A DNA stretch of 60,000 nucleotides from Squalus acanthias. Its lineage: Eukaryota. The notes beneath the pieces were generated by a model. The model worked only from the letters and a program-made list of their open reading frames with translations, was not told the DNA's origin and searched no databases. Positions 4,112-59,890 of the stretch are shown in pieces. Location: positions 98,706,001-98,766,000 of the forward strand of contig CM059431.1 of assembly GCA_030390025.1 (NCBI GenBank), given 5' to 3'. Every line of letters begins with the position of its first letter. Positions within the stretch are counted from its first letter, which is position 1. The position numbers and the translations under genes are program-made.

Positions 4112-4229
4112 CATAAGGATTTCTCCACTATTTTGGTCCTAAACACCTCCTCTTGATCCAGGTTGACGGTACAGTAGCAGTCCCTCATCTTATTTGGTCC
4201 TGGATAGGGAGGCATGTTTTTTGCTTCTC
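4112..4229 (-). CDS. RASA3: Ras GTPase-activating protein 3 (GAP1IP4BP), coding exon 2, start of first C2 domain
   Basis: Minus strand reads ctctttgttcttgccttgcAG | 118 nt | GTacat and translates (G)[38 protein letters not shown](C). This is nearly identical to the human RASA3 segment as I recall it ([40 protein letters not shown]). Canonical splice sites, phase 1 / phase 2. Confidence 0.94.
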
Positions 4230-4427
4230 CTGCAAGGCAAGAACAAAGAGCATGTAATTGGCACTGGAATCAAAACAAGAGCAGCTGGGTCCCGACAGAA
4301 CTCTACATGGAGATCCCATAACACAGCCACAATACAAACTGCCAAACATACCATTGCACATTGGCAGAAGGGGTTTACCTTTCTCCAAGAGTCAGACAGT
4401 CAGGGCTCAATTTAAAGCAGAACCTAT

Positions 4428-7090: not shown

Positions 7091-7094
7091 GAGA

Positions 7095-11882: not shown

Positions 11883-11903
11883 TGGACATCCTGGGGAGTT
11901 GTA

Positions 11904-13990: not shown

Positions 13991-14049
13991 TTGAAACTGA
14001 CCCCTATATCCTGCTAGGATCGTGTTATGTAGTTTGGGCTACTCATTGC

Positions 14050-31317: not shown

Positions 31318-34300
31318 CATAGGAACATAGCAACAGGAGGAGGCCATTCAGCCCCTCGAGCCTGTTCCGCCATTCAATGAGATCATGGCTGATCTGCGAC
31401 TAAACTCCATATACCTTTGGCCCATATCCCTTAGAACATAAGAAATAGGAGCAGGAATAGGCCACTTGGCCCCTCGAGCCTGCTCCGCCATTCAATAAGA
31501 GCTAGGGCTCAAAGCCACTTCCCTGCCCGCTCCCCATAATCTTCCACTCCCTTATCTTGGAAAAATGTGTCTATCTCCACTTTAAATGTATTTAATGACC
31601 CAGCCTCGTAGCTCTCTGGGGCAGAGAATTCCACAAATTTACAACCCTCTGAGAGAAGAAGTTCCTCCTCATCTCAGTTCTAAAAGGGCAAGCCTTTATT
31701 CTGAGACTGGGCCCCCGAGTTCTAGATTTCCCCACGAGGGGAAACATTCTCTCTGCATCTACCCTGTCGTGCCCCCTCAGTATCTTATATGTTTCGATAA
31801 GATCACCTCTCATTCTTCTAAATTCCAATGAGTATAGGCCCAGCCTGCTCAACCTTGCCTCATAAGTCAAACCCCTCATCTCTGGAATTAACCTAGTGAA
31901 TCGTCTCTGAACTGCCTCCAATGCAAGTATATCCTTCCTTAAATAAGGAGACCAAAACTGTACGCAGTACTCAAGGTGTGGTCTCACCAATACCTTGTAC
32001 AGTTGTAGCAGGACTTCCCTGCTTTTATACTCCAACCCCCTTGAAATAAAGGCCAACATTCCATTTGCCTTTTTGATTACTTGCTGCACCTGCATGCTAA
32101 CTTTTTGTGTTTCATGCACAAGGACCCCCAGGTCCCTTGGAACTGTAGCATTTTGTAATCTCTCTCCAGTTAAATAATAGTTTGCTTTTTTATTTTTCCT
32201 GCCAAAGTGGATAACCTCGCACTTTCCCACATTATACTCCATCTGCTAAATGTTTGCCCACTCACCTAGCCTGTCTATACCCCTTTGCAGATTCTTTGAG
32301 TCTTCTGCACAACTTGCTTTCCCACCCATCTTTGTATCATCTGCAAACTTGGCTACATTACACTCGATCCCTTCATCCAAGTCATTAATGTAGATTGTAA
32401 ATAGTTGGGGCCCCAGCACCGATCCTTGCCAGGCAATGACTATCTCCAACAAGCGAGAGTCTAACCACCTCCTTGACATTCAATGGCATTACCATCGCCG
32501 AATCCCCCACTATCAACATCCTGGGGGTCACCATTAACCAGAAACTTAACTGGACCAGCCACATAAATACTGTGGTAACAAGAGCAGGTCAGAGGCTAGG
32601 TATTCTGCGGCGAGTGTCTTACCTCCTGACTCCCCAAAGCCTTTCCACCATCTACAAGGCACAAGTAAGGAGTGTGATGGAATACTCTCCACTTGCCTGG
32701 ATGAGTGCAGCTCCAACAACACTCAAGAAGCTCGACACCATCCAGGACAAAGCAGCCCGCTTGATTGGCACCCCATCCACCACCTTAAACATTCACTCCC
32801 TCCACCACCGGCGTACCGTGGCTGCAGTGTGTACCATCTACAAGATGCACTGCAGCAACTCGCCAAGGCTTCTTCGACAGCACCTCCCAAACCCGCGATC
32901 TCTTCCACCTAGAAGGACAAGGGCAGCAGGCGCATGGGAACACCACCACCTCCAAGGTCCCCTCCAAGTCACACACCATCCTGACTTAGAAGTATATCAC
33001 CGATCCTTCATCGTCGCTGGGTCAAAATCCTGAACTCCCTCCCTAACAGTACTGTGGAAGTACCATCACCACACGGACTGCAGCGGTTCAAGAAGGCGGC
33101 TCACCACCACCTTCTCAAGGGCAACTAGGGATGGGCAATAAATGCTGGTATTGCCAGCGACGCCCACATCCCATAAACGAATTTAAAAAAAAACACTAGT
33201 TACCGTTTGCCAACCAAAAAATGACCCATTTATCCCGACTGTCTGCTTTCTGTTAGTTAGCCAATTCTCTATCCATGCTAATATACTACCCCCAACTCCG
33301 TGAGCTCTTATCTTATGCAGTAACCTTTTATGTGGCACCTTATCGAATGCCTTCTGGAAATCCAAATACACCACATCCACTGGCTCACCCTTGTCCACCC
33401 TGATTTTTACATCCTCAAAGAACTCCAGCAAATTTGTTAAACATGATTTCCCTTTCCTAAAACCATGCTGACTCGGTTTGACTGCAGTATGTTTTTCTAA
33501 ATGCCCTGCTACTGCTTCCTTAATGAAGGACTCCAGCATGTTTCCAACGACAGATGTTAGGCTAACTGGTCTATAGTTTCCTGCTTTCTGTCTCCCTCCT
33601 TTCTTAAATAGGGGTGTTACATTAGCGGTTTTCCAATCCGCTGGGACCTCTCCAGAATCCAGGGAATTTTGGTATATTGCAACCAATGCATCCACTATCT
33701 CTGCAGCCACTTCTTTTAAGACCCTGGGATGCAGACCATCAGGTCCAGGGGACTTGTCATCTTTTAGTCCCATTATTTTACCAAGTACTATTTCCTTAGT
33801 GATAGTGATTGTCTTTAGTTCCCCCCCTCCCTGTGGCCCCTTGATTATCCATTATTGGGATGTTGTTAGTGTCTTCTACAGTGAAGACCGATGCAAAATA
33901 TTTGTTCAGAGTTTCTGCCATTTCCCCGTTCCCCATTATTAATTCCCCAGTCTCATCCTCTAAGGGACCAACATTTACTTTAGCTACCCTCTTCCTTTTT
34001 ATATGCCTGTAGAAGCTCTTACTATCTGTTTTAATGTTTCTTGCCCGCTTACTCTCATAATACCTTTGGTTAACAAAAATCTATCAATCTCCGATTTAAA
34101 ATTAACAATTGATCTAGCATCAATTGCTGTTTGCGGTAGACAGTTCCAAACTTCTACCACCCTTTCTGTGTAGAAGTGTTTCCTAACTTCACTCCTGAAA
34201 GGTCTGGCTCTAATATTTAGACTATGCCCCCTAGTCCTAGAATCCCCAACAGCGGAAATAGTTTCTCTCTATCTACCCTATCTGTTCCCCTTAATATACT

Positions 34301-38210: not shown

Positions 38211-39271
38211 ATGATTCTATGATTGCATGGTTTAACAATGTAACAAAATTAATCATGGCTACACCAGTGTGAATTGGATGCTGGCGCATCTCATGTACAA
38301 GTGAGTTGAAAGTCATGTTTGGTTATATCTCGATAGAAATCCACCAGTTAATTACCAATTGTTATAAAGGGACATATTTGCAACTCTTGTTACGGCATTC
38401 TATGCTGTTGGTGGACGAACAATTTAGGGAGAAGCGTTTTGTCCAGAAACCTTCCCCTTCTTCAGCTTGAAACTCTACACACTAGTGTCTTATTCCATCC
38501 TCCTTCTGGCTGCCCAGGTACAGAACCTTGACATCCGAGCATCAAACTCCCATCAGTAGAGTTGCCCATTACCACCTCGGTAGCATGACCTGCCTTCGTC
38601 CCCACCTCATCCCCACAAATGTCAGCCGAGACTCGGTGGGTAGCACCTGTGAGTCAGAAGATTGTGGATTAAACTCCAACTCCAGAGACTTGACCACAAA
38701 TTATCTAGGCTGACACTCCCAGTGCAGTACTGAGGGAGCGCTGCACTGTCGGAGGGGCAGTACTGAGGGAGCGCCGCACTGGCGGAGGGGCAGTACTGAG
38801 GGAGCGCCGCACTGTCGGAGGGGCAGTACTGAGGGAGCGCCGCACTGTCGGAGGGGCAGTACTGAGGGAGCGCCGCACTGTCGGAGGGGCAGTACTGAGG
38901 GAGCGCCGCACTGTCGGAGGGGCAGTACTGAGGGAGCGCCGCACTGTCGGAGGGGCAGTACTGAGGGAGCGCCGCACTGTCGGAGGGGCAGTACTGAGGG
39001 AGCGCCGCACTGTCGGAGGGGCAGTACTGAGGGAGCGCCGCACTGTCGGAGGGGCAGTACTGAGGGAGCGCCGCACTGTCGGAGGGGCAGTACTGAGGGA
39101 GCGCCGCACTGTCGGAGGGGCAGTACTGAGGGAGCGCCGCACTGTCGGAGGGGCAGTACTGAGGGAGTGCTGCGCTGTTGTAGATGCCGTCTTTCGGATG
39201 AGACGTTGAACAGAGGCCCCGTCTGTCCTCTCAGATGGATGTAAAAGATCCCATGGCAATTTAAAAGAAGA

Positions 39272-40222
39272 ATTAAAAAGCGGAGAAACTACGCCATGTT
39301 CTTCGCAGCCTTCAACATGTCATCGATGACGACGAACACCTTGCTAAGGCCATCCCCACGCCTCCACTACTCGCCTTCAAGCAGCCGCCTAACCTCAAAA
39401 GTACCATCGTTCGCAGCAAATTACCCAGCTGTCAGGAGAACAGCGACCACGACACCACACAACCCTGCCACGGCAACCTCTGCAAGACATGCCAGATCAT
39501 GAACACAGATACCATCATCACACGTGAGGACACTACCCACCAGGTACATGGTACATACTCATGTGACTCAGCCAACGTTGTCTACCTCATACGTTGCAGG
39601 AAAGGATGCCCCGGAGCATGGTACATCGGCGAGACCATGCAGACACTGAGACAACGTATGAACGGACACCGCGCAACAATCGCCAGGCAGGATTGTTACC
39701 TCCCAGTCGGGGAACACTTCAGCAGTCAAGGACATTCAGCCTCGGATCTGCGGGTTAGCGTTCTCCAAGGCGGCCTTCGAGATAATCGACAACGCAAAAT
39801 CATCGAGCAGAAACTGATAGCCAAGTTCCGCACCCATGAGGACGGCCTCAATAGGGATCTCGGGTTCATGTCACGCTACAGAACATGACTCGACATCGTT
39901 GTCTGTCTTTCCAGTTAAAAAAAAACACAAAAAAAACCCAAAAAAACAAACAAAAAAAAGTTAGGAGCTCAACTGCAGACGGCAGCATTTGACACGTTGG
40001 ACCCCCTGTGACCCACCTCATTGTCTTGGCTGTGCTCTGATGTTTCTTTGATGTAGTGCCTTCCTGACGGATTCTATCTCTGCAGACAAGTCGCTCTCTG
40101 TGTATATATACTGTGTATTAGATTCCCTCACTGTACCTCTACCTGACGAAGGAGCAGCAGCTCCGAAAGCTCGTAATTTTAAGTAAAACTGTTGGACTAT
40201 AACCTGGTGTTGTGCGACTTCT
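39272..40222 (+). mobile_element. Penelope-like element (Neptune-type), 5'-truncated, GIY-YIG endonuclease end
   Basis: Open frame 39280-39888 (AFKQPPNLK, CHGNLCKTC, VVYLIRC..YIGET...RMNGH...GLN); 15-bp TSD caatttaaaagaaga at 39257-39271 and 40223-40237. Confidence 0.92.
40140..40175 (+). ncRNA. Minimal type I hammerhead ribozyme motif
   Basis: tac-CTGACGA-a-GGAGC-agca-GCTCC-GAAA-gc-TC-gta: core, 5-bp stem II, palindromic AGCT stem III, 3-bp stem I. Confidence 0.75.
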
Positions 40223-40369
40223 CAATTTAAAAGAAGAGCAGGGGAGGTCTCCCCAGAGTCCTGGCCAATATTTATATCTCAACCAACATTAAAAAGGTCG
40301 TGAAAGATGTTGTATAAATGCAAGTCCTTTTTATTGCTGAAACGATCACCTGCCCTTCATCGCAAGGTT

Positions 40370-41340
40370 TGTGTTTAAAATGGTACCAATCAGTTTCTAT
40401 TGCCTCTCCTCAGTCTTCCTACCAAAATTTATCATTTCACACTTCTCTGCATTAAATTTCATCAGCCATGTGTCTGCCCATTTCCCCAGTCGGTTTGTTT
40501 TTCTGAAGTCTGTCACTATCCGCCTCACTGTTTACTACATTGCCAAGTTTCATGTCATCTGCAAACTTTGTAATTGTGCCCTGTATACCCAAGTCCAGGT
40601 CATTAATATATATTAAAAAGAGCAGTGGTCCTAATACCAACCCCTGGGGGACACCACTGTATACTTCCCGCCAGTCTGAAACACAACCTTTATAAAGCGC
40701 TAGTTAGGCCACAACTGGAGTATTGCGTCCAGTTCTGGTCACCACACTTTAGGAAGGATGTGAAGGCCCTTGAGAGGGTGCAGAGGAGATTTACCAGAAT
40801 GGTTCTGGGGATGGGTGATCTTAGCTACGAGGACAGGTTGGAGAAGCTGGATTTGTTTTCATTAGAGCAAAGGAGGTTGAGGGGTGATTTGATAGAGGTG
40901 TACAAGATTATGACGGGTTTGGATAGGCTAGACGGGGAAAGGCTGTTCCCACTAGTTGATGGTACAAGGACTAGGGGACACAGATTTAAGGTTCTGGGCA
41001 AGAGATACAGGGGGAATGTGAGGAAAAACTTTTTTACGCAGCGAGTGGTGAGGACCTGAAACTCGCTGCCAACGGAATGGTGGAAGCGGAGACACTCAAT
41101 GTTTTCAGGGGGAGACTGCATAGGCACTTGAGGGAAATAAACTTGCAGGGCTACGGGGATAGAGCGAGGGAATGGGAATAACTGGATTGCTCTGCAGAGA
41201 GCCGGCACGGACTCGATGGGCCGAATGGCCTCCTTCTGTGCCATTATGACTCTACTCTCTGCTTTCTGTCCCTTAGCCAATTTGTATCCATGCTGCCACT
41301 GCCCCTTTAATCCCATGGGCTTTCATTTCACTAACAAGTA
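40370..41340. mobile_element. Minus-strand CR1 RT fragment split by a plus-strand CR1 3' piece (40684-41252)
   Basis: ORF 40452-40640 ([18 protein letters not shown]) on minus and ORF 40625-41059 on plus; the outer copy resumes at about 41253. Confidence 0.85.
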
Positions 41341-41979
41341 TAGGCAGGACTTGGCTCAGATTCACATAGTTATGTCAGGGAATAGAATAGTGACTGCACT
41401 CCAAAAAGAATTCAGCATGAGAAGTTCTTCAAAGCATTTAGATACCATTGTAAGACGTTATATAATTGCAACGATTTTAAGGGTCTGAAATTATCACTGG
41501 GCGTACTAAACAGCGCTTGCCCACAAACCCAACACACAGTTAGCACTATTGGGAATCTCTCCCTCAGGCTCAGCACCAAGATAATGCGGACAGGAGAACA
41601 GTTAAAAATTGAGATTGCAGGTAGCGAGATCTCGTCAAGGGGCAGACACTTGTGTATCCTGAACTGTTAGCCACAAAGTGGGTGAAAACCTTTCAGTGCC
41701 AAAGCAAGAGATTCCCCAAAATAAATGAAAACATGCTCCCTTTCTCACCAAACAGAACATCTCTACACTTCAAAATGTAATTCATTGAACGTGAACCCTT
41801 TGGGACATCCTGAGAGTGTGAGAAGGTATCCGGTAGTGTCTCCGCCTCTCTCTCCTCCTTTCAGACGCTCCTTAAAATCTACCTCTTTGACCAAGCTTTT
41901 GCTCACCTGCCCCAATATCTCCTTATGTGACTCGGCAACAAATTTTGTCTGATTTACGCTCCTGTGAAACACCTCGGGA

Positions 41980-42956
41980 CATAAGAACAGAAGAAATAGG
42001 AGCAGGAATAGGCCACTTGGCCCCTCGAGCCTGCTCCGCCATTCAATAAGATCATGGGCTCAAAGCCACTTCCCGCCCGCTCCCCATAACCTTCACTCCC
42101 TTATCTTGCAAAATCTGTCTATCTCCACCTTAAATGTATTTAATGACCCAGCCTCCACAGCACTCTGGGGTAGAGAATTCCACAGATTTACGACCCTCTG
42201 AGAGAAGAAATTCCTCCTCATCTCAGTTCTAAAAGGGCGACCCTTTATTCTGAAACTGTGCCCTCGAGTTCTAGATTTCCCCACGAGCGGAAACATCCTC
42301 TCTGCATCTACCTTGTCGAGCCCCCTCAGTATCTTATATGTTTCGATAAGATCACCTCTCATTCTACTAAATTCCAATGAGTATAGGCCCAGCCTGCTCA
42401 ATCTTTCTTCATAAGTCAACCCCCTCATCTCTGGAATTAACCTCGTGAATCGTCTCTGAACTGCCTCCAATGCAAGTATATCCTTCCTTAGATAAGGAGA
42501 CCAAAACTGTATGCAGTACTCAAGGTGTGGTCTCACCAATACCCTGTACAGTTGTAGCAGGACTTCCCTGCTTTTATACTCCAACCCCCTTGCAATAAAG
42601 GCCAACATTCCATTTGCCTTTTTGATTACTTGCTGTACCTGCATGCTACCTTTTTGTGTTTCATGCACAAGGACCCCCAGGTCCCTCTGAACTGTAGCAT
42701 TTTGTAATCTCTCTCCATTTAAATAATAATTTGCTTTTTTATTTTTCCTGCCAAAGTGGATAACCTCGCACTTTCCCACATTATACTCCATCTGCCAAAT
42801 GTCTGCTCACTCACTTAGCCTGTCTACATCTCTTTGCAGGTTCTTTGAGTCCTCTGCACAACTTGCTTTCCCACCCATCTTTGTATCATCCACAAACTTG
42901 GCTACAGTACACTCAGTCCCTTCATCCAAGTCATTAATGTAGATTGTAAATAGTTG
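41980..42956 (-). mobile_element. CR1 3' fragment inserted in an L2 tail (41835-41979 + 42957-43010)
   Basis: ORF 42093-42791; same subfamily as 31433-32420. Confidence 0.9.
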
Positions 42957-43551
42957 ACGTTTCACTACGTTTAAGGCGCCATATAAATGCAAGTTGCTGT
43001 CGTTGTTGTTGACGACGACAACAATAAGGTTAATGGAAAATGGTTAGCGCTATTTGCGCAAGTGAAACGAATTAAATGTGGGCGGTCTCAGTGGGATGGA
43101 ACCCGTTTTGTGATAACGCCGTTTTCTACTAAAATTAGTGCAAGTGGGTAAAATAGTGTCGCCGTAGCAATATCTAGTGGACAACACTGCTCTAAAATAA
43201 AAGCGTTAGTCCGACTTCTCACTGCTCGTCCTGAGAGACAGACCACCTGCAGTTTACAGGAACACGGTAAATGTCAGATTGAGGGGAGTCCAAGCCACAC
43301 AACAACCGGACAGGATTATCCAGGAATAGAGAAGTATCTTAATGGCAGAGAATAGGGGAAGGGGCAAAAGAGTGAAGCAGAAACGTTGAGAGAAAAGAGG
43401 GCAGGGCCAGCCATGTCTGATGCAATAACAGCTGGTCTGTGGAGAGCACAGGCAAAGCAGAGGCACAATCGATGCTGCTTTGGTTATTGTATAGACAGAG
43501 GGAGACAGAGAGGGAGAGAGGAGGAGGGAGACAGAGGGAGAGAGGAGGAGG

Positions 43552-44051
43552 NNNNNNNNNNNNNNNNNNNNNNNNNNNNNNNNNNNNNNNNNNNNNNNNN
43601 NNNNNNNNNNNNNNNNNNNNNNNNNNNNNNNNNNNNNNNNNNNNNNNNNNNNNNNNNNNNNNNNNNNNNNNNNNNNNNNNNNNNNNNNNNNNNNNNNNNN
43701 NNNNNNNNNNNNNNNNNNNNNNNNNNNNNNNNNNNNNNNNNNNNNNNNNNNNNNNNNNNNNNNNNNNNNNNNNNNNNNNNNNNNNNNNNNNNNNNNNNNN
43801 NNNNNNNNNNNNNNNNNNNNNNNNNNNNNNNNNNNNNNNNNNNNNNNNNNNNNNNNNNNNNNNNNNNNNNNNNNNNNNNNNNNNNNNNNNNNNNNNNNNN
43901 NNNNNNNNNNNNNNNNNNNNNNNNNNNNNNNNNNNNNNNNNNNNNNNNNNNNNNNNNNNNNNNNNNNNNNNNNNNNNNNNNNNNNNNNNNNNNNNNNNNN
44001 NNNNNNNNNNNNNNNNNNNNNNNNNNNNNNNNNNNNNNNNNNNNNNNNNNN
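43552..44051. other. Assembly gap (500 N)
   Basis: Run of N preceded by a GA-rich repeat. Confidence 0.99.
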
Positions 44052-44234
44052 TAGAGGTGCTGCAACACCCAAACTGGGTGGCGTGGGGGTAATTACAGCA
44101 CAAGTTTCATTATAAATTCCTAATGTAGGCATTTTATAAATGGGTGGGTGGGGGAGACTGACTGACTGGGAAATGTGTGCAGATGTTGCAATAGGATATA
44201 CACGAGCATCTATTGAGTGCATGTTGTGCAGTTT

Positions 44235-44555
44235 TGAGAGTCAATAAGGAGAAACTGTTTCCAGTGGCAGGAGGGTCGGTAACCAGAGGACACAGATTGA
44301 AGATAATTGGCAAAAGAACCAGAGGGGAGATGAGAATTTTTACGCAGCGAGTTGTTGTGATCTGGAATGCGCTGCCTGAAAGGGTGGTGGAAGCAGATTC
44401 AATAATAACTTTCAAAAGGGAATTGGATAAATACTTAAAGGAAAAATGTACAGGGCTATGGGGAAAGAGCAGGGGGAGTGGGACTAATTGGAGAGCTCTT
44501 TCAAAGAGCTGGCACAGGCACGATGGGTCGAATGGCCTCCTACTGTGCTGCTAGA
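44235..44555 (+). mobile_element. CR1 3' end
   Basis: ORF 44213-44554 (EKLFP...FTQRVVVIWNALPE). Confidence 0.85.
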
Positions 44556-45156
44556 TTCAGTGACTCTATGATCACTATTTGATACAGGCAGTTCAAAGTG
44601 TAAAATGTTGCTTTGTGTGTGGGCTGTATCGCAATTGCCCCAGGGTAAGGGGGCTGTATTAGAATAGTTTCTGTTAACCGTGTGATCATCATGGCTGGGA
44701 ATTTTTTTTTTGCCAGGTATTCTTGGCTGCTTTCCCACTTGATGATGATTAATGCTGTTTCATTGTGGTTTGCATTCAATGATATGAGCCTGAAAATTGT
44801 GAAATCCTCTCCTGTTCCAATCAATCATGTGCAACATTCTGGTCGGTCAATCAATCCCGCCCCTTCTGTACCCGCCCCTTCTGTGTTGGGAAGTGGAGAG
44901 TCTCCATTTGGGGCGTATTGTCTATCTCATTACATATCTAGTTTTACACCAAGAGTTTTTCCTGCATTGACCTGTGGTTGAAGGTCTGGTTCCTTTACGA
45001 CTCTGATTTGAATTATAAATTCTATTTCTATAAACTGCACATTCCAGTTAATTGAATACAATAGCAAAATACTGCGGATGCTGGAAATCTGAAATAACAA
45101 CAGAAAATGCTGGAAACACTCAGCAGGCCAGGCAGCATCCGTGGAGAGAAAAACAG

Positions 45157-45193
45157 AGTTAACGTTTCAGGTCTGGGACCCTTCATCAGAACT
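45157..45193 (-). ncRNA. Minimal hammerhead ribozyme motif
   Basis: Reverse complement reads agtt-CTGATGA-agggtcccagacct-GAAA-cg-TT-aact. Confidence 0.75.
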
Positions 45194-46321
45194 GGAAAAA
45201 GCTGGAGATGTAACAGATATTAAGCAGGTGCAGAGACAGGGGGGGGGTTTAGGAGGGGAGGAAGGAGATGAAAGAACATTCTGTGCTTATGTAAGAGGCA
45301 GGAAAGGTAAAATGTTGCAAATGGGAATGGCAAAATCATACAGCATGAAAAATGGGGGCAGGGATTATTGTCTGAAATTGTTGAACTCGATGTTAAGTCC
45401 GGAAGGTTGTAAAGTGCCTCATCGAAAGATGAGGTGCTGTTCCTCGAACTTACGTTGAGCTTCATTGGAACAATGTAATAGGCCGAGGACAGAGAGATCA
45501 GAGTGGGAGTGAAGCGGAGAATTAAAGTGACAGGCTACTGGAAGCTCAGGGTCACCCTTACGGACTGAACGGAGGTGTTCCGCAAAGCGGTCACCCAATC
45601 TGCGTTTGGTCTCCCCAATGTAGAGGAGACCGCATCGTGAGCAGCGAATACAGTATATTAAATTGCAAGAAGTACAAGTAAATCGCTGTTTCACCTGGAA
45701 GGGGTGTTTGGGGTCCTGGACAGTGGGAAGGGAGGAGGTAAAAGGGCATGTGTTGCATCTCCTGCGCTTGCACGGGAAGGTGCCAGGCGAAGGAGAAGGG
45801 CTGTTAGGGGTGATTGAGGAGTGGACCAGGGTGTCGCGGAGGGAGCGGTCCCTTCGGAATGCTGAAAGGGGAGGTGAGGGGAAGATGTGTTTGGTGGTGG
45901 GATCACGTTGGAGATGGCGGAAATGGCGGAGGATTATCTGTTGAATGTGGAGGCTGGTGGGATGACCTGAGCTTCCGGTCGCCTGTCCGTTTAATTCTCT
46001 GCTTCACTCCCACTCTGATCTCTCTGCCCTCGGCCTATTACATTGTTCCAATGAAGCTCAACGTAAGCTCGAGGAACAGCACCTCATCTTTCGATTAGGC
46101 ACTTTACAGCCTTCCGGGCTCAACATTGAGTTCAACAATTTCAGACGATAATCCCTGCCCCCATTTTTCATGCTGTATGATTTTGCCATTCCCATTTGCA
46201 ACATTTTACCTTTCCTGCCTCTTACATAAGCACAGTATGTTCTTTCAACTCCTTCCTCCCCTCCTAAACCGCCCCCTGTCTCTGCACCTGCTTAATATCT
46301 GTTACATCTCCAGCTTTTTCC

Positions 46322-46358
46322 AGTTCTGATGAAGGGTCCCAGACCTGAAACGTTAACT
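46322..46358 (+). ncRNA. Minimal hammerhead ribozyme motif
   Basis: agtt-CTGATGA-agggtcccagacct-GAAA-cg-TT-aact; stem I agtt/aact. Confidence 0.75.
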
Positions 46359-46832
46359 ATGTTTCTCTCTCCACGGATGCTGCCTGGCCTGCTGAGTATT
46401 TCCAGCATTTTCTGTTGTTATTCCAGTTAATTGAATGTTGGTCCTTTTTAAATAAAAAGATGCAATTTCCACTTTTTTTAATGTATTCAAATTGGTTTCA
46501 TTTTAAAACTGGAAATGTCCCTCTAATTCCCCCCCCCCTCCCCCAGTTCTATTACTTGACAAACTCGTGATCAACTTAGTTTTGATGCCTCATGTGAATT
46601 TTCTTCTCCTCTTTCTCTGTCTCTCTCTCTGAAGGATTCCTTTCTCAGCATCTCTTTTTTTTTCAAGACCTAGCTGAGGTCAAGAATTTGCTACGTGACA
46701 CTTTTGTAAAGATCAATCTGCTTCTTGGCAGCATTGCAATGAGGTGGTGATGCTGCTGTTGCCCACACAGCTTCATAATTAGTTGGCTCGCAATTTCCAA
46801 TCGCACTACACAGCAGGGCCCTCCAATATTTT

Positions 46833-47621
46833 ATAATAGAAACAGGAAATGCTGGAAACACTCAGCAGGTCAGGCAGCATCTGTAGAGACAAACAGAGTT
46901 AACGTTTCAGGTCTGGGACCTTTTGTCAGAACTGGAAAAAGTTAGAGATGTAACAGGTTTTAAGCAAGGGGAGAGGGGGCAGGGGAGGAAAGAACAAAAG
47001 GGAAGGTCTGTGATAGGGTGGAAGGGAGGAGAGATTAAATGACAAAAGGGATGATAGTATAAAGCAGAAGGAGATGGTAATGGGACAAGTAAAGAAACAA
47101 AAGATGGGTCTGGAGGAGGTGTAAATGGGAATGGCAGAATCATCAACAGCTGCCGACTGGAAAAAATAGGGGCCGAGGTTAGAGGTTATGGTCTGAAATT
47201 GTTGAACTCGATGTTGAGTCCAGAAGGCTGTCAAGTGCCTAATAGAAAGACGAGATGCTGTTCCTTGAGCTTATGTTGAGCTTCATTGGAACAGTGTAAG
47301 AGGCCGAGGACGGAGAGGTCAGAGTGGGAATGGAGCGGAGAATTAAAATGACAGGTGACCGGAAGCTCGGGGTCCCCCTTACGGACTGAACGGAGGTGTT
47401 CCGCAAAGCGGTCACCCAATCTGTGTTTAGTCTCCCCAATGTAGAGGAGACTACGTCATGAGCAGCGAATACAGTATACTAAATTGCAAGAGGTACAACT
47501 AAATTGCTGTTTCACCTGGAAGGGGTGTTTGGGGCCCTGGACAATGGGAAGGGAGGAGGTAGAAGGGCAGGTGTTGCATCTTCTGCGTTTGCACGGGAAG
47601 GTGCTGTGGGAAGGGGAGGGG
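46833..47621 (-). mobile_element. Penelope-like element 3' fragment (hammerhead core mutated to CTGACAA)
   Basis: GIY-YIG remnants (ORF 47231-47419); 12-bp TSD ctccaatatttt at 46821-46832 and 47622-47633. Confidence 0.88.
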
Positions 47622-48579
47622 CTCCAATATTTTGTCCCTCAAGCCACACTTTTATGTGGCTCCATGCTACAAACAAGTTTAATTCCTGTTCCATTAATTC
47701 CCAGATATCTCAAGTTTCAGATCTTTGGTGTACTGATTTTAGAATTTATTTACCAGCCTCTCAAAAGTCAAATAGGCAAACCAGCAGATAAGAAACATAA
47801 GCTCAATTAAGACTTGAGTTATCCAGTTTCAAGGGTCAGATTGTCAGGGTTCAAGGTTGCAGTTTGGACATCCCCCACTCTACAGAATTCAGCCCAGGAT
47901 CTGTTACTGGTCCAGGAAATGCATTAAATTCTTATCGCTGTCGCAACAACACTCAGTGCATTTGTACATAATTATATTAATCTCAAATAGGGCGAAAACT
48001 TTTCTAAAAAGTTGGTTGTGAAGCAATCTGGTTGAATTGTTGACCAGACGTGGTGTAAAGGAAGACCCTCTAACTCGGGCTGTTTGTTATTGGAGGGGTG
48101 GGTGACATTTTCACTGGAGGGAGTGCAAAACAGGCGGTGGTGGATCAGCTGCCTGATACCCGCCTTCCTGCCTGATGATTCTTTCCATTGAAGACAAATG
48201 GAAAGTAAAGTCGGTGGGGTGTGTAATAGGGGGCCGGTCCAGTACAGGCAGTTTGCACCCCTCCTCCCAAATGCTTCTCTGACCTTGCCCCACCCCACCC
48301 TACCTTGGTGTCCTTTGCTCCTCAGACACTGGCTTATTCCTTGTTCCCTATTCTCTCTCGTTCACCATTGGCTCCTTTCAGCCATCATGCCTCAAGCTCG
48401 GGAAGGAAAGCAGGGAGATCCGAAGTCTTGGTGGTTTTCTTTACCTCTTCTTGCAGTGCTGTTCCTCCAATTTCATCTACCTACCCTTCTCTTTCCCTCT
48501 GTCCTTTTTTTAAAAAAAAATTAACGTCTTCATATGACGCATCCTGAGATATTTTCTGATGTGAGGGATACTATATTAC

Positions 48580-49044
48580 CTAGAATGTACAGCACAGAAA
48601 TAGGCCATTCGGCCCAACTGGTCCGTGCCGGTGTTTATGCTCCACACGAGCCTCCTCCCACCCCTCTTCAACTCACCCTATCAGCATATCCTTCTATTCC
48701 TTTCTCCCTCATGTGTTTATCCAGCTTCCCCTTAAATGCATCTTTGCTATTCGCCTCAACCACTCCCTGTGGTAGCGAGTTCCACATTCTCACCACTCTC
48801 TGGGTAAAGAAGTTTCTCCTGAATTCCTTATTGGATTTATTAGTGACTATCTTGTATTTTTGGCCCCTAGTTCTGGTCTCCCCCACAAGTGGAAACATCT
48901 TCTCCACGTCTACCCTATCAAACTCCTTCATAATTTTTAAAGACCTCGATCAGGTCACCCCTCAGCCTTCTCTTTTCTAGAGGAAAAGAGCCCCAGCCTG
49001 TTCAGTCTTTCCTGGGGCATATATCCTCTCAGTTCTGGTATCAT
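48580..49044 (-). mobile_element. CR1 3' fragment
   Basis: ORF 48668-48931 (FFTQRVVRMWNSLP). Confidence 0.85.
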
Positions 49045-49045
49045 A

Positions 49046-49275
49046 GGGAACGGTAGCATAGTGGTTATGTTATTGGACTGGTAATCCAGAGGCCTGGACC
49101 AATGATCTGGAGACGTGGGTTCACATCCCAGCAGCTGGGGAATTTAAATTCAGTTAATTAAAAAGCTAGTATCAGTAATGGTGATCATATAACTACCTCA
49201 TTGTCATAAAAACCCATAATGTCCTTTTTTAGGGCAGGAAATCTGCTGCGCTTACCCAGTCTGGCCTATATGTTG
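49046..49275 (+). mobile_element. Third tRNA-derived SINE family; related remnants near 21190-21440, 27556-27670 and 28500-28710
   Basis: gcatagtggttatgttattggactggtaatccagag...gggttcacatccc head; ggaaatctgctgcgcttacccagtctggcctatatgt body. Confidence 0.6.
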
Positions 49276-49281
49276 CAATAT

Positions 49282-49841
49282 AGAGTCATAATGGCACAGA
49301 AGGAGGCCATTAGGCCCATCGAGTCCGTGCCAGCTCTCTGTAGAGCAATCCAGTCAGTCCTGCTCTATCCCCGTAGCCCTGCAAGTTTATTTCCCTCAAG
49401 TGCCTATCCAGTCTCCCCTTGAAAACATTGAGTGTCTCCGCTTCCACCACTTCCGTCGGCAGCGAGTTCCAGGTCATCACCACTCGCTGCGTTAAAAAAG
49501 TTTTTCCTCACATCCCTGTATCTCTTGCCCAAAACCTTAAATCTGTGTCCCCTAGTCCTTGTACCATCAACTAGTGGGAACAGCCTTTCCCCGTCTAGCC
49601 TATCCAAACCCGTCATAATCTTGTACACCTCTATCAAATCGCCCCTCAACCTCCTTTGCTCTAATGAAAACAAATCCAGCTTCTCCAACCTTCCATGTAG
49701 CTAAGATCCCCCATCCCTGGAACCATTCTGGTAAATCTCCTCTGCACCCTCTCAAGGGCCTTCACATCCTTCCTAAAGTGTGGTGACCAGAACTGGACAC
49801 AATACTCCAGTTGTGGCCTAACCAGTGCTTTATAAAGGTTG
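49282..49841 (-). mobile_element. CR1 3' fragment, close relative of 40684-41252
   Basis: Near-identical peptides ([40 protein letters not shown]). Confidence 0.9.
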
Positions 49842-50604
49842 ACGCTTACCTGCCCTTTGAAATGGCAAGCCACTTGGTTAAAGGCAATTGGGGATGGGCA
49901 ATAAATGCAGGCCTTGCCAGCGATGCCCGTATCCTGTGAATGAATTAAAAAAAAAAGAAAAATCATCCTTGTAAAGTCTTTTTGCACCTTCTCCGGTGCC
50001 TCTATACCCTTTTTTGTAATGATGGAGACCAGAACTGTGCTCCCAAGTATATGAATGCAGGAATTTGGTATTTGGGTGTCTGTCCTGCCCTCTGTGCCCA
50101 TTAATCTTTTTTATGTGAAACAACTTCTTGTTAAATTCTGTTTTATCGTGTGACTAGTTTCCAGCAAAGCAATTAGTTTCTTACAGATTTGATGGGGTGC
50201 TAGCAGTAAAAAAAGAAATGTACTTGTACCAAAAAAATCTCCTGTTTCTTCTACAGTGACAATAATGGGCTTATCCTACCAAGGCATCCTATTGCAAGCA
50301 CGGGAACCGAATGGTAACACTGCGATCGGTACGTGGTCAACGCCACCAGTGAATACCAAAAATATAACGGTACGAACAATTTGTATGTCAATACTGCATT
50401 TATAATTAATCTAATAATGGTCCCACCATTTCAAGATTGTCAAAAAAGGAGCTTTTGCTCTTGCTGTAGGTTTTGACATATTGGTGCTTTCGTATCTTCC
50501 CTTGGAGAAGAGCATGAAGTAGCAGGAAGGATTCGCGGGCTGATTAACAGTCTGACAGGTCGCGATGTGAGCTTTATCTTTATACCAGCCCATTTTGGGG
50601 TGAG

Positions 50605-50870
50605 AAAGACTTGCATTTCTCCAGCGCCTTTCACAACCACCGGACGTCTCAAAGCGCTTTACAGCCAATGAAGTGTAGTCACTGTTGTAATGTGGGAAAC
50701 GCAGCAGCCAATTTGTGCACAGCAAGCTCCCACAAACAGCAATGTGATAATGACCAGATAATCTATTTTAGTTATGTTGGTTGAGGGATAAATATTGGCC
50801 AGGACACCAGGAATAACTCCCCTACTCTTCTTCAAAATAGTACCATGGGATCTTTTATGTCCACCTGAGT
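50605..50870 (-). mobile_element. DeuSINE 3' half
   Basis: Tail and Deu core in reverse. Confidence 0.8.
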
Positions 50871-51476
50871 GTCTCATTCCTTCAGGTTGTGAATTGTTGT
50901 TGGAGATTAAAAAAATGTAATTTTTTTATTTTTTCTCTTTCTCTCTCTCTCAATCCAATCTTTCTTTTCTCTCTCTGTTTCTCTTTCTGTACCTGATTTG
51001 ACTCTAATTCACCTTATTTCCTTGTCAGTTCTTCCTTTAATCTTATTGGTTAAGGAGATAAACTGTTGGGTCTATTCAGAGGGATTTGAGGGTCCTTGTA
51101 CACAAATCACAGAAAGCTAACATGCAAGCAATTAGGAAGACAAATGGTATGTTAGCCTTTATTGAAAGGAGGCTTAAGTATAAGAATAAGGAAGTCTTGC
51201 TGCAACAATATAGGACTTTGGTGAGACCACACCTGGAGTACTGTGTGTAGTTTTGTTCTCTTTACCTAAGGAAGGATATACTTGCCTTGGAGGCGGTGCG
51301 ACGAAGGTTCACTAGATTGACTCCTGGGATGAGAGGGCTGTCCTATGAGGAGAGATTGAGTAGAATGGGCCTATACTCTCTGGAGTTTAGAAAAATGAGA
51401 GGTGATCTCATTGAAACGTATTACATTCTTGGAGGGCTTGACAGGGTAGAGACTATTTCTATGGAGAGAGAAACCG

Positions 51477-51513
51477 AGTTAACGTTTCAGGTCGAAGACC
51501 TTTCATCAGAACT
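51477..51513 (-). ncRNA. Minimal hammerhead ribozyme motif
   Basis: Reverse complement reads agtt-CTGATGA-a-AGGTC-ttc-GACCT-GAAA-cg-TT-aact. Confidence 0.78.
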
Positions 51514-52560
51514 GGAGACAGCAGGAAATCAAATAGATTTAAAGCAAGGATAAAGCTGGGAAAAGGGGGAGGGGATAAAAGAACAAAAGGAGACATTGAG
51601 AGACATTAAGGGCAAGAGGAGGTGTTAATGTGACAGGTTAAGGCTGAAAGAAGTGTGAAATGCACTGGCAGAATGAAAGACAGCTGCCAGCTTCTAGGAG
51701 GGAAAAAAAAGGGGGGGGCAAATAAAAGGGTGGATGAGAAAATAAAATATAAATGTGATGGGGCTAAGGTTATGATCTAAAATTGTTGAACTCGATTCAA
51801 CTTGACCGCTCCCTCCGCGACACCCTAGTCCACTCCTCTACCACCCCCAGCACCCCTTCCCCTTCGCCCGGCACCTTCCCATGCAAGCGCAGGAGATGCA
51901 ACACATGCCCTTATACCTCCCCTCTTCCCACTGTCCAGGGCCCCAAACACCCCTTCCAGGTGAAACAGCGATTTACTTGTACTTCCTGCAATTTAGTATA
52001 CTGTATTCGCTGCTCACGATGTGGTCTCCTCTACATTGGGGAGACAAACGCAGATTGTGTGACCGCTTTGCGGAACACCTCCGTTCAGTCCGTAAGGGGG
52101 ACCCCGAGCTCCTGGTCGCCTGTCACTTTAATTCACCGCTTCACTCCCACTCTGACCTCACCGTCCTCGGCCTATTACACTGTTCCACGGAAGCGCAGCG
52201 TAAGCTCGAGGAACAGCACCTCATCTTTCGTTTAGGCACGCTACAGCCCTCTGGACTCAATATTGAGTTCAACAATTTTAGATCATAACCTCAGCCCCAA
52301 TCACTTTTATATTTTATTTTCTCATCCACCCTTTTATTTGCCCCCCCCCCACCTTTTTTTTTCCTCCTAGAAGCTGGCAGCTGTCCTTCATTCTGCCATT
52401 GCATTTCACACTTCTTTCAGCCTTAACCTGTCACATTAACACCACCTCTTGCCTTGATTATCTCTTAATGTCTCTTAATCTCTCCTTTTGTTCTTTTATC
52501 CCCTCCCCCTTTTCCCAGCTTTATCCTTGCTTTAAATCTATTTGATTTCCTGCTGTCTCC

Positions 52561-52597
52561 AGTTCTGATGAAAGGTCTTCTACCTGAAACGTTAACT
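52561..52597 (+). ncRNA. Minimal hammerhead ribozyme motif (stem II shortened by one mismatch)
   Basis: agtt-CTGATGA-aaggtcttctacct-GAAA-cg-TT-aact. Confidence 0.7.
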
Positions 52598-53714
52598 CTG
52601 TTTCTCTCTCCACGGATGCTGCCTCGCCTGCTGAGTTTTTCCAGCGTTTTCTGTTGTTATTTCGGATTTCCAGCATCTGCAGTATTTTGCTATCGTAGAG
52701 ACTATTTCCTCTGGCTGGTGAGACTAGAACTAGAGGTCATAGTCTCAGGATAAGGGGTCGGCCATTTAGGATTGATGAGAAATTTCTTCACTCAGAGGGT
52801 TGTGAATCTTTGGAATCCTTTACCCCAGAGGGCTGTGGCGGCTCAGTCATTGAGTATATTCAAGACAGAGATCGACAGATTTTTGGGTACTAAGGGAATC
52901 AAGGGATATGGGGATCGGGCGGGAAAGTGGAGTTGAGACAGAAGTTCAACCATGATCTCATTGAATGGCGGAGCAGGCTCGAGGGGCCGAATGTCCTCCT
53001 CCTATTTCTTGTGTTATGATCCCATCGTTCACCAAGGCCCCATTATCAGTTCGCACTTCTAGCAAGTTACAGGGCAAAAATGTTTTGAGCTGAAGGTTGA
53101 GGGCACGCTGCGAGATGCCCCACTCCAGCAAATTCTGGCCCATTGTAACTCTATGCATTAACTTCTTGCATTACATTACTGCAGTGCTTCAGCAGGGCGA
53201 GTAGTGCGATTACTCATTCGAACACTCAAGAGAAAAACAACGCCACCACTTACATCTGGAACCCAACTTCAGAGAATTGCAAAACTAAAATGGTATTTGT
53301 GTAAGTATCTTGCTGCTGGTTGACCCTGAATTTTCAAAACCCAGAAATGACATGAGGTGCTCAAATGACTGTGGGAAACCATTTGAAAGCTACACCGTGA
53401 ATCTTCTCCCCCAGAGAAACGGCACAAAAACTGTCTGTTTACACGGTTTCTCCGGGGCTTCTACCCTGTGGAAATTTGAGTGCCCCAGCCTTTGCTTTGG
53501 ATGAGCAGGCAGGTCTAGCTTCTGCCCAAACTGGACAATACCCAACTTGTGCCCACTCCCAGGTTAGACTGAACCCAACCCTGTGTGGACTTGTGCATTA
53601 AGAATAGTCACTTGGGTAAGGTTCTGTGCCTGTAGAATGGCACATGACAAGAATTTAATATCTTGAGAGAAGAAAAATTCAGGGGGGAAAAAATATTCAG
53701 AGACCATTGATAGA

Positions 53715-54112
53715 GGGCTTTTTAAATTTATGAAGAGGTTTGAACGGGTAGATGGAGATAAGGGGGGAAAAATTCAGTTGGTTGCGCCTCCCGTTAGCAC
53801 CTTAAGAGGGCGCTAATGGGGCGCAAAGCAACTAGTGCCCGGGCGCAGCGATGTTTGCGCCGCTCGCGAAATTAACTAGACATTTTGCGGTGGTGCTAAA
53901 CAGTACCGCCACTATCTCCTGCGCCGGCAGATCGTGACGTCAGTCGAGTGCGCAACGCCCCGGTGTGGATATTGAGTGGCGCCCCCTGCCTTACCGCCTG
54001 CCGCTAGCAACGACAGGTTATGGGGAGCGTTTTGCAGTCAGGAAGGGACTGGGGGAGCGCTATTTAAAGGCGACCGCTTCCTGCCTTTTTTTGTTGGCGA
54101 CATTTTTGAACC

Positions 54113-54143
<31 letters not shown>

Positions 54144-54955
54144 CTTCTGGAGAGATTCAACGCTGTGTGAAGGAGTTTTGGGTACTGAGCAGCACTTTGC
54201 AGGTTCATTTTGATTTGCCCTTGTATCGATTTAGAAGAGACTGTGGGGGCTGCACTCTGAGCTCTTTCCCTGGGCCTCTCCATTGTTCTTTCCAGCAGAT
54301 TTGATGTACAGGTCTCTCCAGGCCGAGATTCAAGGCTGCAATGAGCAGGATGTGGATGGAAAGCAAGATCAACCCTCCCCTTTAAGAACTGGCCGGGGCC
54401 ATTGTGTCTGTGTTCCATTGCTGACTGACATCACATGAGCTTCACCAGCGCTCTGAGTTAGCGCCTTGCTCCTTGGCCTTTGCGCCTTAAGACAGATGTG
54501 TAGCGCCTGATTTAGCGCTCCAATCACCTCCAGGGGCGATAAAAGTCAAGTTTGCAGTTGGAGGCGATAATTAGCGCCAGGTGCTAATCTTTGCGCCCGG
54601 CCGATAATTGCGCTCCAAACGGGGCGATACTGAATTTTTCCCCCAAGGTGTTTCCACTTGTGGGAGAGTCCAAAACTAGAGGCCATCAATATAAGATAGT
54701 CACTAATAAATCCAATAAGGAATTCAGGAGAAACTTCTTTACCCAGAGAGTGGTGAGAATACCACAGGGAGTGGTTGAGGCGATTAGCATAGATGCATTT
54801 AATGGGAAGCTTGATAAGCAGATGAGAGGGGACTAGAAGGATATGTTGATAGGTTTAGCTGAAGTAGGGTGGGAGGAGACTCGTGTGGAGCATAAACACC
54901 GGCACGGCACTGTTGGGCCAGATGGCCCGTTTCTGCCCTGAAAATTCTATGTAAT
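53715..54955 (+). mobile_element. CR1 3' fragment split by a MITE
   Basis: RVDGD|KVFPLVGESKTRGH is restored by removing 53763-54647. Confidence 0.8.
53763..54644. mobile_element. 882-bp non-autonomous DNA transposon, likely PIF/Harbinger
   Basis: Perfect 16-bp TIRs gggggaaaaattcagt / actgaatttttccccc; 3-bp TSD aag (53760-53762, 54645-54647). Confidence 0.8.
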
Positions 54956-55344
54956 GGGGGGGTGGAGAATAGAACAGGAGGGTGTGAGTGACAGGTTCCT
55001 ACAATTACAGTCTTTGGACTGAGGACAGTACTCCATCCATATCCAAGGCACTGGGCAAAAAAAGGGACAGTGTTAAACCCAATTCTTAGTTAGTCGCATC
55101 TCTAGTAATATTTTAACTGGTTGCTGATTACTTATTAGTGGTGGGAGGGGGGTGTAAGCGGATCTACCAGGAGCATCTCAAGCCATGCAGTAACCTCGTT
55201 ACCAAAGCAAAATCCAGGCAGTACTAAAACATTTTGCAGAAAACTGCTCCCAATTCAAAGTCTTTGGAAAAAATCTACCATCTACTGTACTGTAAGCAGT
55301 GCAGCATGGATTTATATACAATAGACTGGATGTTGGGCAGGTCT

Positions 55345-55690
55345 TCATTTCCCAGAGAGCAGTGAGCCTCTGGAATACATTGCTAGCTGGTGTGATGGAT
55401 GCTGCCTCTCTGCCGTCAAGAGGGAGCTTGACCGGTTCCTGACTGGGGCAGAGATCGCATCAGAGACGATAAGTGGATTAACTGATAACACTTTGTCTGG
55501 TGGACTGGTTTCAATTGTCTGAGGGGGTCGGAGAGGAATGTTATCCCTTCTTGACCCTTGGTTTTGTGCCTCTACCAGGAGATTACATGCTGTGGGGAGG
55601 AAGTATCTAGTCATGATGCTGTGGCCATGATGAGGCAGGCTTGGTGGACCAGCTGGTCTTCTCCTGCCCCTCAATCTTGTATGTTTGTGA
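55345..55690 (+). mobile_element. Degenerate CR1-like 3' end; related remnant at about 1800-1920
   Basis: QRAVSLWNTL...FKGELDRFL-like peptide; ctggggcagagatcgcatca and gggggtcggagagga shared with 1800-1920. Confidence 0.6.
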
Positions 55691-56362
55691 TATTTAAGCC
55701 AATGATTGCTTTCTATTACAGAGCGACTGTTGCCCAGAGCAAAGCTGTTTATTGGCTACAAGTACGCTCCCAAGAAATCTGTGAGTAATCATTATTAATT
55801 CATATCTTTTAACAGAACTGAGCAAAATTAATTCCATCAGCTGTGAGGTGGGGAAATTTGTATTGGAGTTTTGACAGTAATAAAATCATCTCGCTTAAAA
55901 TCTGTACCGGGTGGAGGAAGGAGATGGAGAAAAGATGAATGAAATGTGACCATTTGAATAATCTTTCCCCACTGCACTGGACCATCTGTTCCCAGTGAAT
56001 AGTTAAGGGGTGATTGCACAAGTGTTATTGAAGAATAAAATAATACGGGGTAGATCTTGACTTTGTGCAATGGTCTGTGATCCAATTGCATTCCACAAAA
56101 ACTACCTCCAGCTTTAAGACCCCTCTTCAATGCTTGGTCCAGTAACACAAACCCTTTAGTGGGTAATTTAACCCAGTTTGCCCAGCGGCAATCTGGCTGG
56201 ATCGGATTGCCCCCATTCCCTCCCACTTTACACACCACAGCATTTTCACTTTCCATTGGAAGTCCGTGGAAAGTAAAATTGTGCCGTATGCAAAATGGGA
56301 TGGGGGAGGGGAAGGGGGATAATCCGAACCCCTCCGTTTCCTTCCAGCTTGGGTTACAATTA

Positions 56363-56564
56363 CAGAAAATGCTGGAAACACCTTAGCAGGTCAGACAGCA
56401 TCTGTGGCGAGAGAAACTCGAGTTAACGTTCTGACGAAGGGTCATCGACCTGAAACGTTAACTCTCTTTCTCTCCCCACAGATGCTGCCTGACCTGCTGA
56501 GTGTTGCCAGCATTTTCTGTTTCTACTTCAGATTTCCAGCATCCGCAGTGCATCGCTTTTGTTT
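56363..56564. mobile_element. Miniature fold-back Penelope-derived element, about 200 bp
   Basis: Inverted arms (about 56362-56430 vs 56454-56520) of the PLE terminal sequence; probable decayed 14-bp TSD (11/14) at 56349-56362 and 56565-56578. Confidence 0.8.
56428..56462 (+). ncRNA. Minimal hammerhead ribozyme motif
   Basis: gtt-CTGACGA-agggtcatcgacct-GAAA-cg-TT-aac. Confidence 0.7.
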
Positions 56565-59282: not shown

Positions 59283-59890
59283 GGAAATCTGAAATAAAAC
59301 GGAAAATGCTGGAAATACTCAGCAGGTCAGGCAGCATCTGTGGAGAGAGAAACAGAGTTAATGTTTCAGTTCGATGACCTTTAGTCAGAACTAGGAAAAA
59401 GTTCGAGATGTGACAGGTTTTAAGCAAGTGCAGGGATGGGGTTGGTGGGGGGAGGGAAGAGGTGGAGCTGCCATTTACAGTTCCTCTAGACCCTTTTTTT
59501 TTGTTTCTTTACGAAAGCAAAATACTGCGGATGCTAGAAATCTGAAATGTAAACAAAATGCTGGAAATACTCAGCAGGTCAGACAGCATCTGTGGAGAGA
59601 AACAGAGTTAATGTTTCAAACTGGCAAACGTAACCGGTTTTAAGCAAGCAGGGGCAGGGAAGGGGGGGGTGGAAGAGAGAGGAAAGAACAAAAGGGAAGG
59701 TCTGTGATGGGGTGGAGGGCAGGAGAGATTAAATGACAAAAGGGGGCGGTAATGGGACAAGTAAAGAAACAAAAGATGGGTTTAGAGGCGGTGTACATGG
59801 CAACAGCAGAACCATTACCCAGCACCTGCTGTTTGGGGGGGAGGGGGGGGGGAGCAGAGGTTATGATCTGAAGTTGTTGAACTCAATGGG
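59283..59890 (-). mobile_element. Two degenerate Penelope-like 3' ends with a short inverted piece (about 59465-59512)
   Basis: ggaaatactcagcaggtcaggcagcatctgtggagaga terminal motif occurs twice; hammerhead cores are mutated or deleted. Confidence 0.78.

Follow-up and report, generated by a model that had tools for sequence, protein, structure and literature searches.

Minimal type I hammerhead motifs in relic insertions of two Penelope-like element families near RASA3 in the shark Squalus acanthias

Minimal type I hammerhead ribozymes (min-HHR) were described in metazoan Penelope-like elements (PLEs) by Cervera and de la Pena in 2014 (PMC4209133). Helix III is absent and replaced by a palindromic 15.2-16.2, an unpaired nucleotide (nt) lies between positions 9 and 10.1, and helix I has 4-5 bp. 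Thousands of mostly solitary copies were reported, together with opposite-strand pairs 100-700 bp apart. Activity in vitro was weak, and a dimer model was put forward. Fishes, coelacanth, Xenopus and reptiles are given as hosts, and we saw no shark named there. Here we have analyzed a cluster of hammerhead motifs in 60,000 nt of the genome of the shark Squalus acanthias (assembly GCA_030390025.1, contig CM059431.1, positions 98,706,001 to 98,766,000 of the forward strand; the whole stretch is called the window and is numbered from its first nucleotide), which also contains an exon of RASA3. The motifs are very probably min-HHR near the 3' end, in the pseudo-long terminal repeat (pLTR), of PLEs that are left as about nine truncated relic insertions, several of them from single two-primed events, and their cleavage would depend on dimers and probably be helped by protein.

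The likeness to the published min-HHR is close. Like these, the shark motifs are of type I, lack a helix III apart from the self-complementary 15.2-16.2, carry the unpaired nucleotide between A9 and 10.1, and have a helix I of 3-4 bp and a 5-bp helix II; like these, they occur in thousands of copies, most of them solitary remains of truncated elements, with opposite-strand pairs a few hundred bases apart. The sole structural exception measured is the 10.1-11.1 pair, which is G-C in the published consensus and G.U or A-U in the shark family called A below. The motifs are thus an ordinary example of a described kind, found in two shark PLE families. An initial annotation of the window had called them ultra-minimal; the features behind that name are present, but the min-HHR design as published already includes a short helix I, an extra nucleotide after A9 and the lack of a helix III, so that the name adds nothing new.

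A review (PMC6765202) gives the same picture of PLE hammerheads and cites Lunse et al. for dimer cleavage. Newt satellite 2 and avocado sunblotch viroid likewise have hammerheads whose helix III is too weak for the monomer, so that activity is expected only when two copies pair (Forster et al. 1988, cited in PMC4209133 and PMC6765202), but these hammerheads retain a short helix III hairpin and stand in tandem repeats, whereas the shark motifs have no helix III and are not in tandem. In the Poseidon element PAc of Anolis carolinensis the hammerhead lies, as in the shark, about 100-130 nt upstream of two 3' ends that are a 30-40-nt tail apart, and it is reported to cut only with protein present (PMC11167929). 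By analogy with the literature, two shark copies would pair through the ACGU or AGCU palindrome in place of helix III, probably with a protein of the element, and the motif in the element's own transcript is predicted to cut after U17 or C17.

The window was searched with a descriptor consisting of CUGANGA, 0-1 extra nt, a stem II of at least 4 bp and GAAA, followed by A-xy-U with xy self-complementary, H17 and a stem I of at least 3 bp. Precisely six matches were obtained, with CUGA boxes starting at 40143(+), 45189(-), 46326(+), 51509(-), 52565(+) and 56431(+), and these are the six intact motifs of the initial annotation. Together with two decayed motifs (CUGA starts 46929(-) and 59388(-)), all eight sites that it had listed were found at its coordinates, which mark the low-coordinate end of each motif with stem I included, and the 4-nt palindromic helix III that it had described was borne out. 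In the six intact copies the core letters C3 U4 G5 A6 N7 G8 A9, G12 A13 A14, A15.1-U16.1 and H17 are complete, and stems I and II are arranged as in type I; a complete core with both stems was counted 72 times in the sequences examined, comprising the window and genomic loci (L numbers below).

With no more than about 11 letters fixed in the core and no hammerhead reported by Rfam, one might consider that a short, degenerate motif was matched by chance. The probability of this is practically nil: none of 200 simulated windows (first-order Markov) contained any descriptor match, against six in the real one, and all matches occupy one fixed place in two repeat families, which refutes chance as the explanation. 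The Rfam hammerhead covariance models detected none of the motifs at the gathering score or even at E<=10, which would follow if these models depend on a helix III hairpin. Among weak Rfam matches the best was to a plant miRNA model, with 33.6 bits at 56381-56501 (gathering score 73), and it only reflects the hairpin of two head-to-head copies.

Two repeat families are represented: family A (helix III ACGU) accounts for seven of the eight sites and family B (AGCU) for the motif at 40143. Family A has the layout CUGAYGA, extra A, 5-bp stem II with a 3-nt loop, GAAA, CGU, U17 and then AACU. In family B the stems differ in sequence, the loop has 4 nt, the palindrome is AGCU and position 17 is C. 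For locating and aligning family A, and for this only, a covariance model (R1) was built from eight of its copies; R1 finds family A by sequence and did not find family B. The copies and motifs in the window are as follows, with TSD for target site duplication and ORF for open reading frame.

39272..40225, + strand: family B PLE copy, 5'-truncated, recognized by homology to L013/L014/L018 with a common 3' end
39260-39271 and 40226-40237: 12-bp TSD of the family B copy, read directly
40140..40175, + strand: family B min-HHR with a 3-bp stem I, CUGACGA, extra A, 5-bp stem II, 4-nt loop, GAAA, AGCU and C17; predicted cut after 40172
43552..44051: assembly gap of 500 N, within the span of the motif cluster
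45057..46003, - strand: family A 3' fragment with GIY-YIG ORF (45422-46003), hammerhead and long (tailed) 3' end
45157..45193, - strand: intact family A min-HHR (CUGA 45189; R1 80.9 bits); predicted cut between 45161 and 45160
45966..46422, + strand: inverted 5'-truncated arm of the same insertion as 45057..46003, short 3' end; the two inverted arms share 462 bp, 95.5% identical
45044-45056 and 46423-46435: 13-bp TSD of the pair 45057-46422
46322..46358, + strand: intact family A min-HHR (CUGA 46326)
46835..47623, - strand: older family A copy with a dead hammerhead at 46897-46933 (G8 to A, box CUGACAA)
51462..51796, - strand: inverted arm of a second pair, with an intact min-HHR at 51477-51513
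51804..52697, + strand: longer arm of the second pair, tailed 3' end, with a min-HHR at 52561-52597 of intact core, whose stem II has lost its loop-closing pair and keeps 4 bp; the arms share 351 bp, 92.3% identical, and the pair (51462-52697) is flanked by an 11-bp direct repeat
56362..56531: head-to-head mini pair (hairpin), the + arm starting at the 5' edge of the hammerhead and the - arm holding the post-cleavage segment only
56428-56463, + strand: hammerhead of the mini pair at the centre of the hairpin, core intact, stem I of just 3 bp
59289..59488, - strand: decayed family A copy with hammerhead at 59356-59392 (G8 to U, box CUGACUA; ACAU for ACGU)
59542..59888, - strand: further decayed family A copy without the 5' part of the hammerhead (R1 24 bits)

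Altogether these copies amount to about nine 5'-truncated insertions of the two PLE families, all dead on arrival.

Comparison of the two families shows which parts of the motif have been kept. Families A and B have the same core letters and the same extra A, and the unpaired nucleotide after A9 is an A in 44 of 44 distinct variants (the 72 instances above). By contrast, 8 of the 11 helix pairs differ between the families, namely stem I pairs 1-4, stem II pairs 1, 3 and 4 and the central pair of the palindrome, and the changed versions still pair except one, a C.A mismatch in subtype B-i; within family B, U-A, U.G and C-G all occur at one pair of stem I. Compensatory helix changes among families of one genome also belong to the published min-HHR description. 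The pairs were compared by eye, as MAFFT misplaced a one-base loop gap in the joint alignment. Since core and palindrome belonged to the search pattern, the independent evidence consists of the helices and the extra A only, and for the palindrome only its CG to GC switch between the families. Helices that changed around a constant core fit selection on the active elements for the hammerhead fold.

The genomic context also points to PLEs. Searching the 3.7-Gb assembly with 161 nt of family A yielded at least 801 first-look candidates, of which the top 40 scored had 96-100% identity, and a family B query at least 2209, the scored top ones having 92-100% identity. The ORF directly upstream of the 45189(-) motif (45422-46003, - strand), one of 41 ORFs scanned, matched Pfam GIY-YIG with 23.4 bits at a cut-off of 22.6. 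An ORF upstream of the motif in L021 likewise matched (24.1 bits), and one in L022 fell just under the cut-off (20.9 bits). Upstream of a family B motif, L023 has a 586-aa ORF in which RVT_1 was present (35.2 bits) and GIY-YIG was not found. The order of reverse transcriptase (RT) and C-terminal GIY-YIG in a single ORF, characteristic of endonuclease-containing (EN+) PLE, was encountered in L055, where an 843-aa ORF with a weak RT match carries GIY-YIG at aa 753-819 (24.7 bits, over the cut-off of 22.6) and the hammerhead follows 276 nt past its end. A sample independent of the ribozyme consisted of 30 loci picked by GIY-YIG match alone (15,241 first-look candidates, 150 scored, 31 at E<=0.01). 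In 24 of these 30 a family A hammerhead-like sequence was found 225-898 nt downstream on the same strand, 13 of the 30 having an intact core and palindrome, and downstream of the other six no other hammerhead was seen. The element context and the published description (PMC4209133) together confirm the suggestion in the initial annotation that the motifs are minimal type I hammerheads of PLEs.

How the copies were inserted can be read from their ends. In each family the 3' end is fixed about 95 nt past the CUGA box and the 5' ends vary. Two discrete kinds of 3' end, about 38 nt apart, were distinguished (56 long, 39 short, 11 other), and many copies of both families carry an inverted copy on their 5' side. 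Among 23 candidate head-to-head pairs in the sequences examined, a TSD of at least 9 bp was found in 12, all of family A (window 45044-46435 and L005, L021, L022, L026, L029, L033, L040, L058, L063, L076 and L085), and in 12 of 12 the tail was confined to one arm, ten pairs being long/short and two long/other. Because the TSDs flank whole pairs, each inverted pair represents one insertion event, in which both cut DNA ends would have primed reverse transcription. The same features are found in two published sources. For Poseidon (PMC11167929), two RT start sites are reported to explain the tail and both target strands to be cleaved and extended, and this fits the TSD-flanked head-to-head pairs of the shark. 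The PLE scheme of Craig et al. 2021 (PMC8557442) comprises strong 5' truncation, an adjacent inverted 5'-truncated copy, a hammerhead in the pLTR and a tail of 30-40 bp that is often confined to one end, and the shark copies show no substantial difference from it. If 3'-end classes were paired at random, about half of the pairs would be mixed, so that 12 of 12 is unusually clean.

The positions of the 5' ends were tallied for 67 family A copies not chosen for their upstream sequence (8 from the window, 30 incidental and 29 found via the post-cleavage segment alone). The sample is small, and the two arms of one event may both count: 41 of the 67 copies reach upstream of the motif, 11 begin 39 to 27 nt and another 11 begin 26 to 5 nt before the predicted cut site, three begin within 5 nt of it and one further downstream. 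Three tail-only loci with apparent cut-site starts (L057, L059 and L060) are one repeated structure and were not counted as evidence of cleavage. In these (positions about 1480-1570) the family A post-cleavage segment directly follows a short tandem repeat that ends another retroelement-like sequence, two of the three lying on one contig. The preceding retroelement is presumably of the CR1 type.

Several observations weigh against the assignment to cleaving min-HHR of PLEs. Concerning structure, the 10.1-11.1 pair, highly conserved as G-C in the published consensus and G-C also in family B, is G.U in 16, A-U in 14 and G-C in only 2 of the 32 family A rows with letters. Covariation within family A did not exceed chance (95.8% of cells paired against 95.4% in shuffles, 139 of 500 shuffles being as high), as one would expect if the copies are young and derive from a single master sequence. 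In nearest-neighbour folding of 55-nt monomers and dimers stem II formed in all cases, but the fold with stems I and II lay 3.1-3.4 kcal/mol above an alternative for two family A copies outside the hairpin and 11.8 kcal/mol above it for the 56431 copy in the hairpin centre. The optimum of the dimers did not rely on the 4-bp palindrome alone, and such folding is uninformative for a ribozyme that depends on tertiary structure. Concerning the elements, the RVT_1 match of L055 (aa 374-501, 24.9 bits) is under its cut-off of 29.6, no hammerhead was found upstream of the ORF in L055, and no complete tandem pLTR-ORF-pLTR was seen in the window or in L021, L022, L023 and L055, which is a small sample and a weak test. 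Finally, 5' ends did not pile up at the predicted cut site, as just three short copies out of 26 begin no more than 5 nt from it, and therefore there is no genomic record of cleaved templates. In contigs from four sequencing runs the summed depth was higher over the post-cleavage segment, a difference that carries no information on cleavage.

The positions of the 5' ends bear on whether the motif is kept mainly for a role other than cleavage, such as a platform for binding or assembly of the RT-EN protein, a site of template-RNA dimerisation or a signpost for where the transcript or ORF begins. In favor of such a role, 9 of the 26 short copies begin within a 3-nt window at the first bases of stem I (-34 to -32), not at the cut site, and these nine come from several subfamilies. 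According to the Poseidon report (PMC11167929), insertion of the Anolis element in vitro was unaffected by catalytic mutations of the hammerhead, which cleaved only with protein, and RNA-seq showed no ends at the site of cleavage; the starts of the short shark copies away from the cut site agree with these absent RNA ends. The same report describes the Poseidon ORF as starting inside a CUG-AUG-A box, and an AUG is present in the CUGAUGA box of many family A copies. On the other hand, many shark copies read CUGACGA and, unlike Poseidon, have an ACG and no AUG there. Furthermore, all letters of the catalytic core have been kept between A and B while nearly every helix base differs, as selection for catalysis predicts, and fungal PLE hammerheads cleave efficiently as monomers (PMC4209133). 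We therefore regard a mainly non-cleavage role as improbable beside min-HHR that cleave. As a separate observation, the core AUG of the CUGAUGA copies (45189, 46326, 51509, 52565 and many loci) opens, as judged by eye, a stop-free frame of about 45 codons that spans the post-cleavage segment and the tail.

Short copies of about 100 nt starting at stem I were found in L063, L066, L067, L068, L077, L084 and L085 and at 56428 in the window, several of them as hairpins. Those in L066, L067, L068 and L077 span the hammerhead to the element's 3' end, and two of the short copies (L067 and L068) have clear TSDs. Such units recall non-LTR retrozymes, non-autonomous tandem hammerhead repeats that spread via small circular RNAs, and a 2026 preprint derives retrozymes of animals, vertebrates included, from PLE pLTRs, also in its one Chondrichthyes genome. 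Nevertheless, no head-to-tail tandem of the motif was found in the window or any locus read, the motifs being single or head-to-head only, and most copies in the window have PLE coding sequence upstream. That the motifs belong to retrozymes is thus very unlikely.

A possible, if doubtful, reading is that the ~100-nt copies record a discrete short RNA with one end at the 5' edge of the ribozyme and the other at the RT start site. This RNA would have been retro-copied independently, in many cases from both target strands so that hairpins arose. On this view the template RNA would have its 5' end marked by the ribozyme, and cleaved RNAs would rarely serve as templates, since so few short copies start near the cut site. 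If true, this would provide indirect in vivo evidence on how PLE RNA is made and used, a step that is open in the literature.

The initial annotation had also placed the cluster in a host intron and proposed that the two minus-strand copies, as part of RASA3 pre-mRNA, could dimerise. An exon 65 kb below the window belongs to RASA3, its top named relatives being shark and ray "ras GTPase-activating protein 3" with 95-98% identity. When a shark RASA3 protein (P0022) was mapped, its exons were found on the minus strand, from aa 808-833 up to aa 18-58, and the last of these is the only host exon found in the window.

4114..4230, - strand: RASA3 coding exon, about aa 18-58; in tblastn 39 of 39 residues (aa 19-57) are identical to P0022

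The motif cluster lies 36-52 kb upstream of this first mapped coding exon, and RASA3 aa 1-18 had no match within the window. The best match in the genome to aa 1-21 was on an unplaced contig (C3544:30509-30571, E=0.028, 81% identity, 30-residue query). That RASA3 is on the minus strand with an exon in the window thus stood, but because exon 1 has not been placed on the contig and the 500-N gap lies inside the span, the intron location is unproven, and the cluster lies in either RASA3 intron 1 or the 5' flank. Judging from the C3544 match and the gap, the beginning of RASA3 is perhaps unplaced or wrongly assembled.

The strand and position of RASA3, with the cluster upstream of the aa 19-57 exon in the sense of transcription, and the presence of two intact motifs on the minus strand are what could be expected if the motifs were intronic ribozymes exapted by the host, the minus-strand copies dimerising via ACGU and cutting the host transcript. 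Yet with exon 1 off the contig and the gap in the span, even transcription through the site is a supposition. The initial annotation had already pointed out that each minus-strand copy would compete with pairing to its own inverted arm, and this was confirmed: in the minimum free energy (MFE) folds of transcripts across the two inverted pairs (-966 and -741 kcal/mol) 29/29 and 28/29 hammerhead nucleotides were paired with the inverted arm, which argues against host-transcript cleavage at equilibrium. With the arms paired and the two copies 6.3 kb apart, the proposed dimerisation in the pre-mRNA is unlikely at equilibrium. Moreover, the same sequences are found hundreds to thousands of times elsewhere in the genome.

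The decay of the copies also speaks against host use. In old family A copies loss of the ribozyme is mostly CpG decay, in the palindrome (ACGU to AUGU or ACAU) and at G8 (CUGACGA to CUGACAA), and both dead copies in the window show such CpG-type states. Individual copies thus decay largely at CpG as if neutral, and therefore the host does not conserve them. The copies in the window are passive relics with neutral decay and no sign of host use, and host-exapted ribozymes in RASA3 are hardly credible. The sense-strand change to CUGAUGA is harmless, as it falls on N7.

The remainder of the window contains other repeats and frames. Large tandem arrays whose repeat unit measures about 33 or 66 bp, on both strands and 86-98% alike, are located at five places, 5000-8300, 12700-14000, 19100-19540, 21570-22170 and 38720-39180. 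ORFs of the LINE type (Exo_endo_phos and RVT_1), unrelated to the PLE copies, are located at 16779-18851(-), 418-1395(-) and 33186-33851(-). A 240-aa open frame at 11187-11909(+), on the strand opposite to RASA3, has a weak Pfam match to VGLL4 (24 bits, cut-off 27).

Two very abundant and recently active PLE families of the shark genome thus carry the standard minimal hammerhead. Scans based on Rfam miss these motifs, and such copies near or inside genes are relics and not host ribozymes; beyond annotation the significance is small. The sample nevertheless provides a clean genomic illustration of the published mode of PLE insertion, in which one event involves two primed strands and leaves the tail at one end only.

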